A stretch of DNA of 13,381 nt from assembly GCA_048268245.1 (NCBI GenBank), contig JBLWVX010000050.1, positions 1 through 13,381 on the forward strand, written 5' to 3'. This DNA is from Arcobacteraceae bacterium (GTDB lineage Bacteria > Campylobacterota > Campylobacteria > Campylobacterales > Arcobacteraceae). The translations under genes were made by a program, and so were the position numbers. Below, piece by piece: positions 130 to 8,229 of the stretch. The notes under the pieces were generated by a model. The model did not search any database. It worked only from the letters and a program-made list of their open reading frames with translations, and was not told the origin of the DNA. Every line of letters begins with the position of its first letter. The first letter of the stretch is position 1.

Positions 130-1509
130 CTATACCTCTTCTTTTATTTGATTAAATAGTCTCATAAGTGAGTCTTCATATAATTTTGCATTTTCTTGTG
201 ATTTTGCTTCAAATCTTGTTACAAGTTTTGGTGTAGTATTACTAGCTCTAACTAGTCCCCAACCATCTTCAAAGTTTACTCTAATACCATCAACTGTGAT
301 GATATCTTTTATCTTTGGCATAAAACTTGGTGGATTTTCAAGTGAACTTTTTAGTTTCTCAACTAAAGGAAACTTTGTATCCTCAGTTACTGTGATATTT
401 ATCTCATCTGTACTATATACCTTTGGCAAAGCTTCATACTCTTTATCAAAATCAAATCCATCAGCTATAAGCTCTAAAGCTCTAAATGTAGAATAAATAG
501 CATCATCATATCCAAAGTATCTGTCATTGAAGAAAAGATGTCCTGATACCTCTGCTGCAAAAGAAGCATTTAACTCTTTGATTTTTACTTTTAGGTTACT
601 ATGTCCTGTTTTATACATAACAGCTTTTCCGTAAGTATTGATAGTATCATACATAATTTGGCTACATTTCACTTCACCAATAACAGTAGGATTTTCTATA
701 AATTTAGAGAAAAAGATAGCTAAAATATCACCTTTGAAGTTATAATTTTTTGATAAAAGTGCTATTCTATCTGCATCTCCATCATACGCAAATCCAAAGT
801 CATACTCACCACTAGCTAATTTTTCTTTTATATCTTTTAGAGTTGACTCATCACTTGGATCTGGATGATGATTTGGGAAAGTTCCATCTGGCTCTTCAAA
901 TAAAATATCATATGAAATATCAAGCCTATCAAGAATATCTCTTAAAACTACACCAGCAACTCCATTTCCACAGTCAAAAATAAACTTTTTATCTTTTAAA
1001 TCAAGTTTTGAAAAATGTTCTACTATATAGTCTATATATTTATCTTTTGCATCTATACTTATAGTCTTTGTATTGTCTTCTATAGTTTGAGTATCTTCTA
1101 AGATTTCTCTTCCAAGTGAATAAATATCTTCACCAAAAAAAGGATATTTATCAAGTGTGATTTTAAAACCATTATATTCAGGTGGATTATGTGAGCCTGT
1201 AATCATCACAGAACCATCCACTTGTCTTTCTTCAAACTCTACATAGTTTGAAAAATAATTTGCAGGTGTAGGAACAAGTCCCATATCAAGTACTTCAAGT
1301 CCTGCTTTATTTATACCACTACTTAACCACTCTTTTAGTATAGGTGAATGAGTTCTAGCATCATACCCTACAGCCATATATTTAGCAGTTGATACCTTTT
1401 GTTTTAGTTTATTTGCTAGATGAAAACCTATTTTTTTTACTATATCTTCGTTTAGCTCCTGCTCAAAGATACCTCTTATGTCATATTCTCTGAAAATTGA
1501 TGAAGGCAT
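130..1509 (-). CDS. Phosphomannomutase/phosphoglucomutase (alpha-D-phosphohexomutase, AlgC-like)
   Basis: N-terminal IFREYDIRG, catalytic phosphoserine loop [11 protein letters not shown], metal-binding DGDADR, sugar-binding AEVSGH, C-terminal VRASNTTP. Confidence 0.95.
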
Positions 1510-1609: not shown

Positions 1610-1637
1610 TAGAAACCCAAAGTATATTGGGTTTCTA
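1610..1637 (-). terminator. Hairpin (terminator or mRNA-stabilising stem-loop) after the small Gly/Ala protein gene
   Basis: Perfect 11-bp inverted repeat TAGAAACCCAA-N6-TTGGGTTTCTA, 9 nt after the stop codon at 1647. The U-tract on the minus strand is weak. Confidence 0.7.
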
Positions 1638-1646
1638 TAGTTTTGA

Positions 1647-1970
1647 TTAGTGGTGACTTGGTGTTGAGTTGTTACCAGTAGAAAGGGCAGTAGCGGCAGC
1701 AGCAGCGGCAGCAGCAGTAACAGCACTAATTCCACCAATAGCAGCTCCACCAGCAGCGGCAGCTCCTGCTCCAGCAGCGGCAGCTCCACCAGCAGCTCCT
1801 GCTCCAGCTCCAGCACCTGCGGCACCCGCACCAGCACTAGCAGAACCAGCAGCACCCGCACCAGCTCCTCCTGCACCTGATCCAGCACCTGCACCAGTAG
1901 CTGGAGCTTGTGCCATTGCACTAGCTACAAATAAAGAAGAAGCGAAAACGATTGATAATAATTTTTTCAT
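1647..1970 (-). CDS. Small secreted Gly/Ala-rich protein with YjbE/GfcA-like architecture
   Basis: SD AAGGA at 1979-1983, 8 nt from the ATG. Sec signal peptide MKKLLSIVFASSLFVASAMA|Q with an AxA site. The mature 87 aa are 64 Gly/Ala, ending in a hydrophobic Ala-rich segment and a Ser/Thr tail. Codons mostly end in A/T like the host. The gene is adjacent to a YjbH/GfcD-family gene. Confidence 0.85.
   Translation of the reverse strand: MKKLLSIVFASSLFVASAMAQAPATGAGAGSGAGGAGAGAAGSASAGAGAAGAGAGAGAAGGAAAAGAGAAAAGGAAIGGISAVTAAAAAAAATALSTGNNSTPSHH
1692..1865. repeat. Mosaic of short coding direct repeats within the Gly/Ala gene
   Basis: (AGCGGCAGCAGC)x2 at 1692-1715. CCAGCAGCGGCAGCTCC at 1750-1766 and 1771-1787. 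GCAGCTCCACCAGCAGC at 1741-1757 and 1780-1796. GCACCCGCACCAGC at 1822-1835 and 1852-1865. All offsets are multiples of 3. Confidence 0.85.
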
Positions 1971-1999
1971 ACAAAATATCCTTTTTTAAGTTTTGCAAT

Positions 2000-2008
2000 A
2001 TTTTACCA
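2000..2008 (-). promoter_or_regulatory. Putative extended -10 promoter (TGGTAAAAT) for the small Gly/Ala gene
   Basis: TGnTAAAAT lies in the 66-nt gap between the YjbH stop and the small gene, about 30 nt upstream of the ATG, with T-tracts upstream as in Campylobacterota sigma70 promoters. Confidence 0.65.
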
Positions 2009-2036
2009 TAAAATCTTTAAATTTAAAAATTTTATT

Positions 2037-4184
2037 TTATTCTCTTAGATTATTTATATACTTTTTCATAATTTGTGTGTTATTTTCACTACTATTCATA
2101 GGATATAAACTATCAAGTGTTGAAGCACTTACACCAACATCTCTTGTCCATGGCGTTAGACCAAATCTAAGTCTATCTTTTACATTTTTATATGTAAACA
2201 CTTCAAGAGGCACTTTTATATATACACCTTTATCAATATAACCCTTGTTATCTTCGTTTTCAAATACCTTATTTGAGTTTGTATATGTAGCAAAAGCTCC
2301 AAATGTAAAGTCTTTATAATTTCTAGCTACTTCAAGTCTGATACCCTTATCACCTGCTAAAAACTGCCCTATTTTTGCACCCAGATGCAAATCATACTTT
2401 TGATTTACTAAATAATAAAGGTTCAAAAACTTTGCATCATATTTATATTCATCTTTGATTCCAAGTAGCTCACCCACTTCTCTTTTATATACATTTTGAT
2501 ATTGAAGTCCTACTCCAAATCTCTCATCAAACATAGGTTTATACCATTCTAAATCAACTCCTGCAAAAGCGAACTCCAAGTATCCAAGTTCAGCTTTGAA
2601 AAAAGAATCGTTAAAAGTATTTGCTTTATATACCATACTTAAGTGTGACATTTGAGTATCATTGTAAGTGAAATGTTCTGTTATATCACCTCTTAGTGAT
2701 AATTTTCCTTCTTCAAGAGGAGAAGAAGAAAGTTCTGTTCCACTATGATAAAAAGGATGTTCTATTGAACCATGTATTTCAAGATTATCTGTAAATACAT
2801 AAGAAGCATTTAGAGCCATAGACACTTTCATAGCAAAGGGTTTATCTTTGTGATTTAGCATTGTTCCAATTTTTGGAGCAAATTTATATCTAAATCTCTC
2901 AGTAGCAACTGTATCACTTATATATAAGTCTTTTCCTTTAGCAAACTTTTCATACATACCATCGGTATCATTTGAAATTAAAATAGCATCTCTCATATAT
3001 GAGTCACTTACTTTTTGATTTTCATACATATCAAATTCAGCTCTATTTACTTTGATAGTTTTCTTTTTTATCTCTTTATCTTTAATAGTCATATAAATAG
3101 TGTCATATTTCTTTGGTGCAACTTCATCTATAGCTGAGATGGCTCGTCCTGCTGCTTTTAGTTCGTTGTAGTATCTTGGGTTGTCTATCTCTGTCCAAAT
3201 ACTGTTTTCATTTACAGCTGTTTTTACATACTTGAACTTTTCTGCAGCTACTTCTTTTGAGAGTTTATCTGATAAATCTTTTTCATTTAGATTTTTATAC
3301 TCAGCTTTTTTCTTTTCATCTGCTTTCCATCTAGGATCTGGAAGATGATCAAACATACCTGTTCTATCAAAACCAAACTGATATGTATATCCAAATGATA
3401 TAGTATTTCCTCTTTGATAAGATAGATTTAAAATAGAATTATTACTATATTTGTATTTTAATCCATAATTGAACTTTGATTTTGGAAGTTCATAATCACC
3501 AATAGTATAAGGGTTTACTTTATCTTTAGCATAATCAATAGGTGCATATTCAGCCATAAAAGAAAAAGATGGACTTGCATTAAAAACTACTGAACCAAAT
3601 GGTTTACCACCACCCCAATCAGTGTTTTTTAAAAAGTTTACAGAGTTATTATCAAAACTTCCTGAGTTTGATGAATTTGCATCATATTTTTTAAGATCTT
3701 CACCTCCTAGTCTTCCTTTTGCATAACCTAAAGACAGATCAAAATATCCTATATTTTTAGAAACAACTAAATATTTTGAAGTATAAAGAGAAGTACCCCA
3801 AATATCATCAGCACCTATAGCAACTGATGGTGTATACTCGCCCTCTTCTTTTAAAAGAATTTTTACACTTAGAGATTTATCTTTATAGCTTCCATATCCT
3901 TCACTATCAGAAAATCCAGCAACTCCAGATACTTGAGTCATATGAAAGTTAGCTTCAACAAAAGGCAAAGGAGTTGCTGTAAGACCATAATATCTATAAG
4001 GTTTATCTTCATTTAGAAAAAGTCTCATAGACCAGTCTTTCATAATTCTAGCATTTGGTGTTTCAAAAACACCTGTGTTTCCACTGTATGTAGCTGTGAT
4101 ATTTTCAGGTGTTTTTGCTGCAAGTAAAAAACTTGCAGTAAGAGGAAGAATACTAAGAGTTTTTAAGTTCATCAATTTTTTCAC
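2037..4184 (-). CDS. YjbH/GfcD/WbfB-family outer-membrane beta-barrel protein (exopolysaccharide / group 4 capsule associated)
   Basis: Signal peptide, then GNTGVFETPNARIM, YKDKS, GYLEFAFAGV, GQFLAGDKG, DKGVYIKVPLE and PWTRDVG, which match YjbH-family motifs as I recall them. Length about 710 aa with many aromatic alternating beta-strands. The start could be GTG 4184 or ATG 4172; both overlap the wzz stop. Confidence 0.88.
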   Translation of the reverse strand: MKKLMNLKTLSILPLTASFLLAAKTPENITATYSGNTGVFETPNARIMKDWSMRLFLNEDKPYRYYGLTATPLPFVEANFHMTQVSGVAGFSDSEGYGSYKDKSLSVKILLKEEGEYTPSVAIGADDIWGTSLYTSKYLVVSKNIGYFDLSLGYAKGRLGGEDLKKYDANSSNSGSFDNNSVNFLKNTDWGGGKPFGSVVFNASPSFSFMAEYAPIDYAKDKVNPYTIGDYELPKSKFNYGLKYKYSNNSILNLSYQRGNTISFGYTYQFGFDRTGMFDHLPDPRWKADEKKKAEYKNLNEKDLSDKLSKEVAAEKFKYVKTAVNENSIWTEIDNPRYYNELKAAGRAISAIDEVAPKKYDTIYMTIKDKEIKKKTIKVNRAEFDMYENQKVSDSYMRDAILISNDTDGMYEKFAKGKDLYISDTVATERFRYKFAPKIGTMLNHKDKPFAMKVSMALNASYVFTDNLEIHGSIEHPFYHSGTELSSSPLEEGKLSLRGDITEHFTYNDTQMSHLSMVYKANTFNDSFFKAELGYLEFAFAGVDLEWYKPMFDERFGVGLQYQNVYKREVGELLGIKDEYKYDAKFLNLYYLVNQKYDLHLGAKIGQFLAGDKGIRLEVARNYKDFTFGAFATYTNSNKVFENEDNKGYIDKGVYIKVPLEVFTYKNVKDRLRFGLTPWTRDVGVSASTLDSLYPMNSSENNTQIMKKYINNLRE

Positions 4185-5079
4185 TTCTTATAAACTCATA
4201 AAAAAATACCAAAAATATTCCAAATATAAATGAAGTCACAAAAGAAACCACAAGTATTACAGCTCTTTTTGGTTTACTTTTTTCTTTTATATAAGAGACT
4301 CTACTATCCACTACTTTTGATACAAAGTAATAGTCATTTGCTTGAGAGAATACTTTCTTTTGATATAAACCTGACAAAGATTTACTTAATTGTTCTTTTA
4401 ATGATACATCATAAGTTGAGCTTAGCTCTTTGTTGTAGTACTTAATTTGTTCATCTATTTCTTTCATATCAGAAGTTTTTACTTTATCCACTATTTCTTT
4501 TAGATATATATCCACAAGCTCTTTTGCTAAATATCTATCTTGAAGTTCAGCACTTAAAGTAATAAGCCCTGTTTTTTTATCACTAGATATAGAAAGTACT
4601 CCTTTTAAAGCTTTTATTGTTAAGTAGATTTTCTCTTCTTTTGATCTAATATCTTGTGCATTTTCAACTTTTGAATTAAAAAGATTATAAATTGTATCAA
4701 GACCAAAAGCAAATACTAGATTTTCTTGATTTTCTAGTTTAGAAGTAAGTTTATACTTTTCTACCATCATTTTATTAAAACTATAATCTCCTAGTACTGT
4801 TTGCATCATCACAGCTGGATCATTTGAACTTCCTCCCCCAAGACTAACTCCAGCTAGTGAGGCTAAAGAAGAAAGATCTCCATGTGATTTTTGTTCACTT
4901 TGAGGAGATAAAACAACACTAGATTTATATGAGTTTGGAATACTTAAAACATATACAAAAGTAATAGCTATTATTACAAATACAAAAAGCAATATTTTGT
5001 ATTTGTACTTTAAAATTGTATTAAAAAGTTCTCTTAAATCTATCTCATCTTGTTTATTTATACTAAGCTTTTCACTCAT
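4153..5079 (-). CDS. wzz: Wzz/FepE/Etk N-terminal domain polysaccharide co-polymerase (chain-length regulator, OtnB-like)
   Basis: DEIDLRELF N-terminal motif plus TM1, a periplasmic coiled region, and a KSKPKR motif plus TM2. There is no kinase domain. The start was moved from GTG 5091 to ATG 5079 because SD AGGTGG (5088-5093) lies 8 nt upstream of it. Confidence 0.88.
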   Translation of the reverse strand: MSEKLSINKQDEIDLRELFNTILKYKYKILLFVFVIIAITFVYVLSIPNSYKSSVVLSPQSEQKSHGDLSSLASLAGVSLGGGSSNDPAVMMQTVLGDYSFNKMMVEKYKLTSKLENQENLVFAFGLDTIYNLFNSKVENAQDIRSKEEKIYLTIKALKGVLSISSDKKTGLITLSAELQDRYLAKELVDIYLKEIVDKVKTSDMKEIDEQIKYYNKELSSTYDVSLKEQLSKSLSGLYQKKVFSQANDYYFVSKVVDSRVSYIKEKSKPKRAVILVVSFVTSFIFGIFLVFFYEFIRSEKIDELKNS

Positions 5080-5080
5080 A

Positions 5081-7687
5081 TTATATACCACCTATAGTTT
5101 TAAGAGAAGCAGCTGTTATTGCAAACTGATAAAGTATAGTTGATACATCTTTTGCAAACTTCATATCAGAAAACATATCATACTGCATAGGTACTACGAT
5201 AGTGTCACCTTTGAATATCTCTTTATCATTACCCCAAAAATAGCTTGATTCATATTTTATAGTTTCACCATTTGCTTTTACTATATAAATATAATCTCCA
5301 TTTGCAAGTTCAGTTACACCACCAGCTTTTGCTAAGTAATCATCAGTATCAAGTTTATTGTTATATACAAATGTATTTTGATTTAAAACTTCACCTACAA
5401 CTGAAACCGTATCACTAATAGATGGTACATATAAAGTATCTTCATCTTTCAGTGCTATATCATAAGGTGAGTTTTTAAACCTGTTTAAATCATGATATAA
5501 GTTTAAAGATACTCGTCCTATAGGCTTATTTCTTTTTGCTTCATTTTCTAGTTGTTTTATAGCTTGAAGTTTTTTTGCTGCATCATCTTTATCTTCACCT
5601 AAATTCTCACTTGAAGTACTAGCTTTCAGTACTTGATTTCCAATTCTATCAAGTGTTTCTTGAAGTCTCTTTTCTTGAAGTTCTCTAACTTCTTCTCTAG
5701 TAAATACAGCACCTTCTACAAAGGCATTTGGCAAGAATCCGCCAGCTCTTAAAATCACACTTGATAGTTTCTCACCCTCTTCTATAGCGTATTTACCTGG
5801 ATACCTAACTAATCCTTTGATTTCTACATATTTTTTGTCATTCCAGTTTGCTATTGGGAAAATAGTAATTTCATCATCTGCAAAAACTTTTATTTTTAGA
5901 TTTAAGGCTTTATCCATATCTAAAGCTAAAACTTTTCTTTTTCTTTCATAATCTTCTGTATAGTATCTAACAACTTCAAATCTAGCTCTTAAAGCTTTTT
6001 TTGTAAGTCCACCTGATATATTTACTATATCATTTATCGTTGTATTTTCATTTATATCATAAGTTCCAGGGATAAATACTTCACCTTTGATAGTTGCTTT
6101 CATTCTATCGTTTACAGCTGTAAAATCAAAAAATCTTACTTCATCATATTTTTTAAGTTTGAAGTTTTTGTTTTCACTTAAGTTTACTAAAAATGTTGAT
6201 TTTTGATTGTTATCAAGTCTTGTGATTTGAACTTTTGTTTTATCTACCCTTACAGATTTTCGTACTTCATCTTCAAAAACTTCACTATTAAACTTCACAA
6301 GTCCGAAGAGATCTGATACACTCATGCCTTCATAAAATTCATATTTTCTTTTACTATTATCTACTACTTCACCTTTTGCATAGATATAAGGTTTCTCTTT
6401 CAAATCTGAGTTTTTAAAGATAGTGATTTCATCACCAGCTTTAATAGTATAATCTTCTTTTTTATCAAGCACATTTTGAAGATTGAAACTTTTGATTTTG
6501 TTGTCATTTTTTATAACTGCGAAGTTATAGTTTGTATCTTTTTTAAAGTATCCATTCTCTCCAAACTGCTTTAGTTCATTTTGAAGAAGTGTTGAAAGTT
6601 TCATATCTGATGGAAGTTCTTTCTCACTTGGTGCTACAATATTTCCTGAAATTTTTACTAAATTTGCACCAAGTGTACTAGTAGAATACACATGAATTTC
6701 ATCCCCATTTTTAGGTGTAAATTTATATAGTTTTTCTTTACTTAAAGTATAAACTTTAATAGTATCATTTTCATATCTTTTAAGACTAATTGCATTTTGG
6801 TTAGCCTTTGCTTTAAATCCTGCTGCAAAGTTAAGAAGTGTTCTAAAACTCTCACCTTTCTTAAGTTCAAATATTGCATTGTAGTTTACATCACCTGTAA
6901 GCTTAATCTCTTTACTAATAGGCTTAACTAAAATTATGTCACCATTTTTTAAAATAGTATCACTACTTGCATCACCATATCTTACAAGTGAATATAAATC
7001 AAATGACTTATAAACCTTCCCAGCTCTTTTAAGTAATATATTCCTATATGAACCATTTTCTAAAATACCACCACTTGAAATAAGTGCATCTTTTATAGTA
7101 GAAAAAGAAGAAAGATTATAAAGACCTGGTGCATTTACAAGTCCAGATATTGTAACTTGAATAGATGAAAACTCAGAAATATCAACTAAAATATTTGTAC
7201 TATTTGGATATGCTTTTTTAGTCTCTTCTTTGATAAGCTTTTTAGCTTCTTGAAAGTTTAAACCTATTACTTTAAGCTCTTTTACTTGAGGAATGTTTAT
7301 ATTACCATCTTTATTAACATCTAAAATAAAATCTTCATTTGTTCCACCATAAATCTTAAGTGAGATTTTATCCCCATGATTTAAACTATAGTTTGATGGA
7401 GTTGGAATACTATATGGGTTTAGTTTATTTTTGTTATTGAAAAATAAAGAAGCAAATCTTTCTAGTTTTTCATCTTTTTCAACTTCTTTTTTCACAACGA
7501 TTGGAACATTATTTTTAATTATCTGTTCTTTTAAAGCATCACTTTCTAAACTTTGTTTCTTTGATAACTCTTTTTTTATATCAGCTTCACTGTAGCCAGC
7601 AACCTTCGCTAATTCTAATTGAGTAGGTGTTAATGTAGCAGAGAATAACACACTACATACAAGTAGTAAACTATATATAATCCTCAT
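5081..7687 (-). CDS. Large polysaccharide export protein (OPX; Poly_export plus multiple SLBB domains; KpsD/OtnA-WbfF-like)
   Basis: Signal peptide. Poly_export motif YSLNHGDKISLKIYG...DGNINIPQV. Repeated SLBB units (GLVNAPGLY, GEVFIPGTY, GLVRYPGKY, VVGEVLNQ; AGG and GD motifs). C-terminal amphipathic helix. SD GAGGA at 7696-7700. Confidence 0.9.
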   Translation of the reverse strand: MRIIYSLLLVCSVLFSATLTPTQLELAKVAGYSEADIKKELSKKQSLESDALKEQIIKNNVPIVVKKEVEKDEKLERFASLFFNNKNKLNPYSIPTPSNYSLNHGDKISLKIYGGTNEDFILDVNKDGNINIPQVKELKVIGLNFQEAKKLIKEETKKAYPNSTNILVDISEFSSIQVTISGLVNAPGLYNLSSFSTIKDALISSGGILENGSYRNILLKRAGKVYKSFDLYSLVRYGDASSDTILKNGDIILVKPISKEIKLTGDVNYNAIFELKKGESFRTLLNFAAGFKAKANQNAISLKRYENDTIKVYTLSKEKLYKFTPKNGDEIHVYSTSTLGANLVKISGNIVAPSEKELPSDMKLSTLLQNELKQFGENGYFKKDTNYNFAVIKNDNKIKSFNLQNVLDKKEDYTIKAGDEITIFKNSDLKEKPYIYAKGEVVDNSKRKYEFYEGMSVSDLFGLVKFNSEVFEDEVRKSVRVDKTKVQITRLDNNQKSTFLVNLSENKNFKLKKYDEVRFFDFTAVNDRMKATIKGEVFIPGTYDINENTTINDIVNISGGLTKKALRARFEVVRYYTEDYERKRKVLALDMDKALNLKIKVFADDEITIFPIANWNDKKYVEIKGLVRYPGKYAIEEGEKLSSVILRAGGFLPNAFVEGAVFTREEVRELQEKRLQETLDRIGNQVLKASTSSENLGEDKDDAAKKLQAIKQLENEAKRNKPIGRVSLNLYHDLNRFKNSPYDIALKDEDTLYVPSISDTVSVVGEVLNQNTFVYNNKLDTDDYLAKAGGVTELANGDYIYIVKANGETIKYESSYFWGNDKEIFKGDTIVVPMQYDMFSDMKFAKDVSTILYQFAITAASLKTIGGI

Positions 7688-7821: not shown

Positions 7822-8229
7822 TTATAATCTATAAGTCACATCTTCAATATCATAATCAACTTCTAACTTTTCACAAACTGAATCAGTTGAAGTGTCATCA
7901 ATATCTATAACTAAACTTTTTACATCACTTACATCTTTTATTTCTATAGTAACGCAAGCTTTTCCACTATCATCATTGAAAACAGCTTTTCCAGCTGTAA
8001 CCACCCAATTTGTTTTACTTAATACAATTGCTGTATCAATATTAGTCAAACTACTATCAAGCATAGCATAACTTTGAATAGCTGTAGTAGCACTTACTAT
8101 ATCTCTTTTTATAGTAGAAGCTTTTGCTTCGTCTTTTGAGTCAATAAACTTTGGTACAGCAACAGAAGCAATAATCCCTATGATTAAAATTGCGAAGATT
8201 AGTTCAAGTAAAGAGAAACCATTTTTCAT
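7822..8229 (-). CDS. Prepilin-type N-terminal cleavage/methylation domain protein (type IV pilin / pseudopilin-like)
   Basis: Class III signal MKNG|FSLLELIFAILIIGIIASVAVPKF with Glu at +5. Two C-terminal-half Cys could form a disulfide. SD AAGGA at 8237-8241. Confidence 0.9.
   Translation of the reverse strand: MKNGFSLLELIFAILIIGIIASVAVPKFIDSKDEAKASTIKRDIVSATTAIQSYAMLDSSLTNIDTAIVLSKTNWVVTAGKAVFNDDSGKACVTIEIKDVSDVKSLVIDIDDTSTDSVCEKLEVDYDIEDVTYRL

Follow-up and report, generated by a model that had tools for sequence, protein, structure and literature searches.

A small gene of 107 codons follows the yjbH gene in a stretch of DNA of 13,381 nucleotides (nt) from a bacterium of the Arcobacteraceae (the window; contig JBLWVX010000050.1, assembly GCA_048268245.1). 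Its product is a widespread, under-annotated partner of outer-membrane proteins of the YjbH/GfcD family, found here in a minimal locus that lacks GfcB. Judged from position and layout, it is very probably a counterpart of Escherichia coli GfcA and YjbE, common descent being unproven from sequence alone. The small protein may be a cargo, made in abundance and placed by YjbH in the outer membrane, where it would tether a Wzx/Wzy polysaccharide, a reading suggested by the sequence comparisons and held with somewhat less than even confidence. An anchor and a fibre have both been published as speculation for GfcA/GfcD; the new elements are a module shared across phyla and the GfcB-less minimal system.

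The protein consists of a Sec signal peptide, a spacer rich in Gly and Ala, a weakly hydrophobic stretch of small residues and a Ser/Thr/Asn tail (Table 1), the last two of which are called here the helix-plus-tail module. A first-pass annotation of this DNA had described the open reading frame (ORF) as encoding 107 amino acids (aa), with an AMA|Q cleavage site, an 87-aa mature part with 74% Gly+Ala, silk motifs and a gap of 66 nt behind the yjbH stop, and all of this was confirmed. The mature part has 40 Ala and 24 Gly (73.6%), no Asp, Glu, Lys or Arg and no Phe, Trp or Tyr (two His are present), and contains one GAGAGS, several (GA)n runs, two A4 blocks and one A8 run. The cleavage site is a by-eye reading of the sequence, not the output of a signal-peptide predictor. 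No Pfam or NCBIfam family matches the small protein, and its gene was the sole ORF of such composition among 200 short signal-peptide-like ORFs of the genome, picked with a crude filter (one other row, a weak 55-aa match, stood at 0.54). The AlphaFold model has a helix at residues 2 to 20, then disorder and a low-confidence helix at residues 82 to 95. It shows no strands, a weak result since the predicted local distance difference test score is < 50 at residues 37 to 90, and as a monomer model it is uninformative for aggregates.

ORF 1647-1970 is a real gene: its codons resemble those of the host, its length varies in frame among relatives, a conserved -10 box precedes it and a hairpin follows it. 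Its third-codon-position GC is 0.148 (0.08 to 0.15 in six neighbouring genes), and its length differences from five relatives are all multiples of three. The TAnAAT -10 box is aligned in 12 of 12 yjbH-small gene spacers with five invariant positions, the 12 being kin, and such a box occurs in the corresponding interval of 70 out of 216 same-strand gaps in the genome. A hairpin (-15.3 kcal/mol, z -6.6) follows the stop and lies at the same place in all eight sequences folded; a scan for consensus terminators did not call it. Seven RNA runs contained small shares of matching sequence, and four of them were aligned to the window. In RNA run X3 one contig spans 1732-1977 with one difference (depth 2.2), and runs X1 and X6 hold a relative of this segment (approximately 88%) as well as pieces of yjbH and OPX. 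These matches were discounted as evidence of expression; RNA contigs show neither strand nor level, and several short matches are repeats of other organisms.

Within the Arcobacteraceae the small gene tracks the barrel. YjbH was present in 12 of 184 genomes, and the small gene was complete behind yjbH in 11 of these, while in the twelfth (L009) the contig end truncates its start. A profile of the small protein, built from the 12 small proteins of these genomes and hence circular for its own matches, matched 13 of the 184 genomes, namely those 11 and two in which it weakly hit the signal peptides of unrelated proteins. The 172 YjbH-negative genomes yielded no true copy in this search. Genes resembling those for outer-membrane polysaccharide export (OPX) proteins were commoner than yjbH (42 of 184 genomes, some short or distant), and none of 12 long-OPX loci in YjbH-negative genomes, some on short contigs, had the small partner gene. 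Two examples are genome G125, in which an OPX gene (63% identical) and a Wzz gene precede an unrelated 526-aa protein and no small partner, and G011, which has OPX without YjbH and carries Wzi. Because all 12 of these YjbH-negative OPX loci lack it, the small gene follows YjbH and not OPX or Wzz.

The 526-aa protein of G125 (L274:7362-8942) is a predicted outer-membrane protein in the place of YjbH. It has no Pfam match, and Wzi and YjbH were both rejected as its identity. In two same-genus, YjbH-negative genomes (G004 and G005; L266 and L267), a long OPX gene stands directly before genes for type II secretion-like pseudopilins, away from any sugar cluster as read from the sequence.

The yjbH genes of Desulfobacterota, Nitrospirota, Deferribacterota and alpha-, beta- and gammaproteobacteria have equivalents of the small gene beside them, those for GfcA and YjbE of E. 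coli among them. A scan of the flanks of YjbH genes across phyla, as proposed in the first-pass annotation, showed that small signal-peptide ORFs co-occur tightly with them. Outside the gammaproteobacterial type, 80 loci were kept from 188 matches (mostly Desulfobacterota and Nitrospirota, with some Deferribacterota and Campylobacterota). The module was present in 52 (two partial, one with a frameshift), 16 were cut near the barrel and 12 had no module nearby. Ten of those 12 genomes were searched whole and eight have the small gene elsewhere, in most cases next to a gene for OPX, for Wzz or for a protein of 165 to 180 aa. One Desulfobacterota order was sampled evenly, mostly as incomplete assemblies, and the module was found in 20 of 31 YjbH-positive versus 4 of 120 YjbH-negative genomes. 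Of these four matches, one is a genuine member located on a short contig, two are different proteins with a comparable stretch and the last is a lipoprotein signal. Among gammaproteobacterial-type loci (80 kept from 452, many from near-identical enterobacteria) the top match stood at the gfcA/yjbE position in 69, and all 11 misses had < 1.75 kb of upstream sequence. A small ORF of the same layout was present in all four alpha- and betaproteobacterial records (three alpha, one beta). Where whole-genome searches matched, there was one module-bearing gene per genome (L130 holds a second, weaker copy), and a search of 1.84 billion proteins gave 19 matches, which are all small proteins that carry the module at their C-terminal end or close to it.

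Some loci in this survey are unusual in themselves. The small gene upstream of yjbH at L035:5470-5744 has a frameshift between signal peptide and module, either an assembly error or a pseudogene. L113:4474-7971 is an open frame of 1165 codons with SLBB and YjbH domains, which is an OPX-YjbH fusion or an OPX gene frameshifted into yjbH. The YjbH-negative locus L293 (L293:1093-2280, G651) encodes a signal-peptide protein of 388 aa whose helix-plus-Gly module is internal; YjbH was not found there and the protein has no Pfam match. In many Desulfobacterota and Nitrospirota loci a signal-peptide protein of 165 to 185 aa (Table 1) comes after the small gene, even far from yjbH. It has no Pfam match, and the ESM Atlas gave unnamed clusters, with a lead to DUF4878 at 0.88. 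This protein may stand in for GfcB; the window locus has no such protein.

The likeness to GfcA and YjbE lies in linkage to YjbH/GfcD and in a shared layout of signal peptide, low-complexity spacer, small-residue hydrophobic stretch, acidic-Gly turn and Ser/Thr tail. The E. coli proteins (GfcA, also named YmcD, 101 aa; YjbE, 80 aa, PF11106) belong to the operons gfcABCDE-etp-etk, for the group 4 capsule, and yjbEFGH. A module profile built from 40 non-gammaproteobacterial seeds and no E. coli sequence gave 33.3 bits for GfcA and 20.9 bits for YjbE, in each case the top score of the locus and higher than any of 100 shuffles. With composition correction off, held-out partners from Pseudomonadota scored higher forward than reversed in 56 of 58 cases, and 51 of the 58 outscored every one of their 100 shuffles. 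The proposal that the protein is a divergent YjbE/GfcA counterpart in a distant phylum is supported by layout, position and cross-phylum co-occurrence. Against it stands the profile score of the window protein itself, which is mostly compositional (44.0 forward, 45.6 reversed, 33.6 for shuffles). Alignment of the module with GfcA and YjbE by hhalign gave probabilities of 2.6% and 1.7%, short of significance, and neither the small protein nor E. coli GfcA is matched by Pfam YjbE. The ESM Atlas gave only a lead at 0.85, to a cluster with 23% YjbE.

The window locus differs from gfc and yjb in several respects. Its spacer is of Gly/Ala and not Thr/Ser, the chain ends in HH, and the small gene comes after the barrel gene, whereas that of GfcA or YjbE lies three genes before it. 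The GfcD/YjbH barrel of the group 4 capsule operon is present; its YjbH-family identity, already given in the first-pass annotation, was borne out by Pfam (Table 1). GfcB/YjbF was not found in the same genome (0 of 1) or in five near-complete relatives (0 of 5), the E. coli control being detected. A separate GfcC gene is missing from the window locus, and the C-terminal part of the long OPX is GfcC-like only weakly, below the Pfam thresholds (GfcC_N, E 0.0075; GfcC_C, E 0.0092). In place of the Wza/Wzb/Wzc-type GfcE-Etp-Etk there is the long OPX with a kinase-less Wzz, a comparison that covers the window locus and not the rest of the genome. As GfcB/YjbF was not found here and no GfcC is annotated in the three alphaproteobacterial loci, the core that these systems share consists of the small protein and the barrel.

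In published work gfcA is described as highly variable, always upstream and confined to gfc/yjb operons (bioRxiv 10.1101/391854, whose Table S7 may already include distant gfcA-like proteins), and GfcA as natively unstructured and of an ancient family (PMC8346858). GfcD/YjbH is described as the largest family of multi-barrel outer-membrane proteins, GfcA and GfcD being uncharacterised (PMC11494523, PMC13621845, PMC8346858). The anchor of the group 4 capsule is reported as unknown, and all seven gfc genes are needed in E. coli (PMC13621845). GfcC modules occur in class 2 OPX proteins (PMC9603273). The Vibrio wbfDCB and orf1-wbfDCB loci and gfcABCD of soft-rot Pectobacterium and Dickeya are named gfcABCD homologues (PMC8592465). 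These loci differ from the window in that they keep genes for GfcB and GfcC and have a Thr-rich end without His. The available portions of PMC13712831, PMC7414163 and PMC3599342 hold nothing on the small protein, and in the literature outside subscription journals and supplements there was no paper on Arcobacter YjbH, GfcA glycosylation or YjbH structure.

The silk likeness is incidental, the Gly/Ala repeats being a variable spacer and the helix and tail the conserved part. In a survey of 117 distinct complete partners (a few loci were dropped at the start filter), GAGAGS was found in six and GAGAG in 28, and spacer Gly+Ala was at least 70% in 42 and < 50% in 38. Spacer length ranged from 10 to 115 residues, with Thr-, Pro- or Glu-rich, charged or globular variants, and one Arcobacteraceae orthologue has a charged, non-repetitive spacer. 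The silk-like fibre considered in the first-pass annotation is therefore not supported. At the canonical gfcA position, too, some gamma-type and alphaproteobacterial loci (L146, L147, L149 and L220) encode silk-like spacers. The constant part is a stretch of approximately 19 residues of Ala, Val, Ile and Gly, then a turn of Ser, Gly, Asp and Asn, and then the Ser/Thr tail. The poly-Ala run of the window protein occupies the position of this hydrophobic helix, where relatives have Val, Ile, Leu or Gly.

Two or more Ser/Thr are present in the tails of 115 of 117 partners. A His within the last four residues was found in 13/13 partners from Campylobacterota and 46/46 of the Desulfobacterota/Nitrospirota type, and in 1/55 of the gammaproteobacterial type. 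Only 12 of the 117 have Lys or Arg within 15 residues after the helix (one has two or more), leaving 105 tails without either, and 84 tails contain Asp or Glu. Membrane-anchored control proteins of the same genome, a crude set, all have Lys or Arg after the helix (12 of 12; two or more in 9 of 12). The membrane-insertion score of the stretch is marginal (median +1.4, window +2.4) on a rough scale without position terms. Helix sequence is loose, with a mean column identity of 34% and only the last His nearly invariant.

Longer and alternative forms of the partner also exist. Four long forms (L284:1330-2094, L289:1342-2169, L092:8305-9207 and L064:5419-5961) carry an insert of approximately 150 aa after the helix, and the three complete ones (L092, L284 and L289) end in a shared motif, HPG...TTxH(H)G...Y.T..H, with the look of a β-hairpin. 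In two subfamilies (Table 1) a conserved, probably globular passenger of 60 to 90 aa replaces the Gly/Ala spacer; the two that were scanned have no Pfam match. N-glycosylation of the PglB type at NST or NNS in the tail was rejected, as the sequon is missing by eye from several Arcobacteraceae orthologues.

For the small protein as a tether, the following course is proposed. Its own short transcript would allow the peptide to be made in excess over the barrel, and after Sec export and signal cleavage the whole chain would reach the periplasm. It would not be held in the inner membrane because the helix appears too weakly hydrophobic and is without positive-inside charges. The tail would be recognised by YjbH, and the helix would enter the outer membrane by way of the lateral opening predicted in the C-terminal barrel. 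There it would hold the product of Wzx/Wzy/Wzz, a polymer that the long OPX guides, either covalently on Ser/Thr or non-covalently, the Gly/Ala repeats serving as a flexible spacer only. A 13-stranded C-terminal barrel with a predicted lateral gate is described for GfcD (PMC11494523). The two-barrel fold and gate assumed for the window YjbH rest on such papers about E. coli GfcD, and no solved structure related to this YjbH was found by sequence.

The first-pass annotation had proposed a dedicated export system with the peptide as cargo or partner of the barrel. The cargo or partner idea is kept, and 'dedicated protein exporter' claims too much for a locus that includes OPX and Wzz and that in relatives heads a Wzx/Wzy cluster. 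Its version of the peptide as an anchor or scaffold appears to fit best; PMC8592465 has likewise raised, as speculation, a modification of GfcA by O-antigen and its export by GfcD. A wider reading, which must be called unlikely, is that YjbH/GfcD and GfcA-type partners form a protein-sorting route in which the helix-plus-tail module is inserted via the lateral gate and anchors group-4-type capsules across phyla. Such a module could carry any passenger on either side, whether Gly/Ala, Pro/Thr, globular or a helical insert of approximately 150 aa. A general sorting signal with many substrates per genome is unsupported, a profile search giving one match in the same genome (background maximum 13.2 bits of 28,884 frames); the module search of genomes is insensitive, having missed three of five known cases, one of them frameshifted.

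Several observations weigh against the tether. The window tail has only five Ser/Thr and two relatives have one, no dedicated O-linking transferase was identified, and 21 of the 117 helices score below zero, that is, as membrane-inserting. Five distant YjbH-like genes of other Campylobacterota have no such small neighbour. In split Desulfobacterota loci the small gene often stays by OPX and not yjbH (seven loci; L130-L133), and the YjbH-negative loci L293 and L299 encode other proteins with a similar helix-plus-Gly module, which is therefore not exclusive. The annotation of E. coli GfcA is that of a threonine-rich inner membrane protein, and the available text of PMC11494523 explains the gate by a lipid A anchor and involves no peptide.

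The small protein could instead be a structural cofactor of the export machine, much as LptE serves LptD. The tail might pair as a β-strand or hairpin with the open edge of the 13-stranded barrel, or else the helix might close the gate or pack against the membrane helices of OPX. One module-bearing gene per genome and the small size of all 19 matches in the large protein search fit such a role, as do the split genes that stay with OPX, the His/Thr end motif kept by the long forms and the alternating Thr/aliphatic, strand-like patterns of some gamma tails. However, the peptide's own promoter box and hairpin suggest an excess over the barrel, and both a helix as loose as this one and a tail end that varies by phylum are unusual for a fixed interface, so that a cofactor is rated somewhat unlikely. 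An inner-membrane or periplasmic carrier that is anchored by its helix in the inner membrane and there accepts or chaperones the polymer for transfer, without ever crossing the outer membrane, is distinctly unlikely. The annotation of GfcA and the helices below zero on the insertion scale speak for it, as do the one to three transmembrane segments predicted in 80% of soft-rot gfcA orthologues (bioRxiv 10.1101/391854). Yet the tails mostly lack Lys and Arg and often contain Asp or Glu, whereas the positive-inside rule is obeyed by all 12 controls, and in Arcobacteraceae the gene tracks an outer-membrane barrel and not Wzz or OPX.

A functional amyloid or silk-like fibre subunit secreted through a FapF-like N-terminal barrel is highly improbable, although GAGAGS, (GA)n and A8 are present, Gly/Ala-rich spacers recur in several phyla, and amyloid export by the FapF-like N-barrel of YjbH/GfcD has been suggested (PMC9603273) and noted (PMC8346858). 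The rarity of GAGAGS and the spacers that can be short, charged, Pro/Glu-rich or globular argue against it, as does the low-confidence model without strands. A Pfam scan of the window genes found no nucleator, chaperone or second amyloid subunit in the locus. As in Fap (FapC/FapF) and curli (CsgA/CsgG), a small signal-peptide protein stands beside a barrel; unlike them, the window has a polysaccharide locus, no conserved repeats and no accessory genes. FapC and CsgA have an Asn/Gln repeat consensus that the window protein lacks. Silk fibroin and spidroin consist of long arrays, whereas the window protein has one GAGAGS, (GA)n and a poly-Ala run in a single, non-conserved copy. That there is no functional protein at all, only a GC-rich repeat or a dispensable hitch-hiker, fits the absence of a family match; against host-like third-position GC, in-frame indels, conserved signals and presence across phyla its probability is almost negligible.

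Genes in the window are ordered long OPX, Wzz, YjbH, small gene and manB (phosphomannomutase), and the nearest named relative of the barrel is that of Arcobacter roscoffensis (95%). Relatives have the locus at the head or the end of a Wzx/Wzy cluster with genes for a flippase, a polymerase-like protein, a glycosyltransferase and nonulosonate, as read from a scan of 26 of the listed ORFs.

Table 1. Positions of the features discussed, in the window unless a locus handle (L) precedes them
Feature	Position	Strand	Basis
Phosphomannomutase/phosphoglucomutase	130..1509	-	Pfam scan; in relatives heads the following sugar cluster
Stem-loop directly 3' of stop, terminator-like, 11 bp stem, weak U tail	1610..1637	-	Folding
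Small GfcA/YjbE-type gene, 107 aa	1647..1970	-	Sequence, composition, profile searches
Ser/Thr/Asn tail, residues 97-107, HH end, no Lys/Arg	1650..1682	-	Sequence
Weakly hydrophobic small-residue stretch, residues 78-96, conserved, predicted helix	1683..1739	-	
Gly/Ala 'silk-like' spacer, residues 21-77, variable across family	1740..1910	-	Alignment, partner survey
Sec signal peptide, residues 1-20, site AMA|Q	1911..1970	-	By-eye prediction; kept in relatives; confident model helix 2-20
Shine-Dalgarno-like AAGGA, 8 nt 5' of ATG	1979..1983	-	Sequence; purine-rich in relatives
Extended -10 promoter box TG-n-TAAAAT in yjbH-small gene spacer	2000..2005	-	Predicted own promoter
YjbH/GfcD-family outer-membrane protein, 715 aa	2037..4184	-	Pfam PF06082, 3.3e-120
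Wzz-type polysaccharide co-polymerase	4153..5091	-	PF02706, PF13807
Long OPX export protein, Poly_export and 5 SLBB	5081..7687	-	Pfam scan
Globular-passenger subfamily 1	L049:8063-8617; L052, L082, L085, L097, L102		
Globular-passenger subfamily 2	L063:8021-8479; L076, L079, L080, L091, L094, L106		
165-185-aa signal-peptide protein, examples	L065:8274-8792; L094:8641-9195; L130:961-1488; L132:1732-2256		

A lone prepilin-type (N-methyl) gene lies at 7822-8229 between dnaB and the OPX gene and is also present in two relatives. The DnaB orthologue at L224:81-2552 (G001) has 824 aa versus 482 in the window, possibly through an intein insertion.

The conserved part of the partner across phyla is the helix and tail, which narrows the question of the role of GfcA and of the capsule anchor to a module of 30 residues. 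The four-gene, GfcB-less system is a place where the anchor question can be addressed. If the peptide is the anchor, it would represent a protein-based capsule tether and a new route of insertion into the outer membrane. If it is not, the family still supplies a missing annotation for many small genes now listed as 'hypothetical'.

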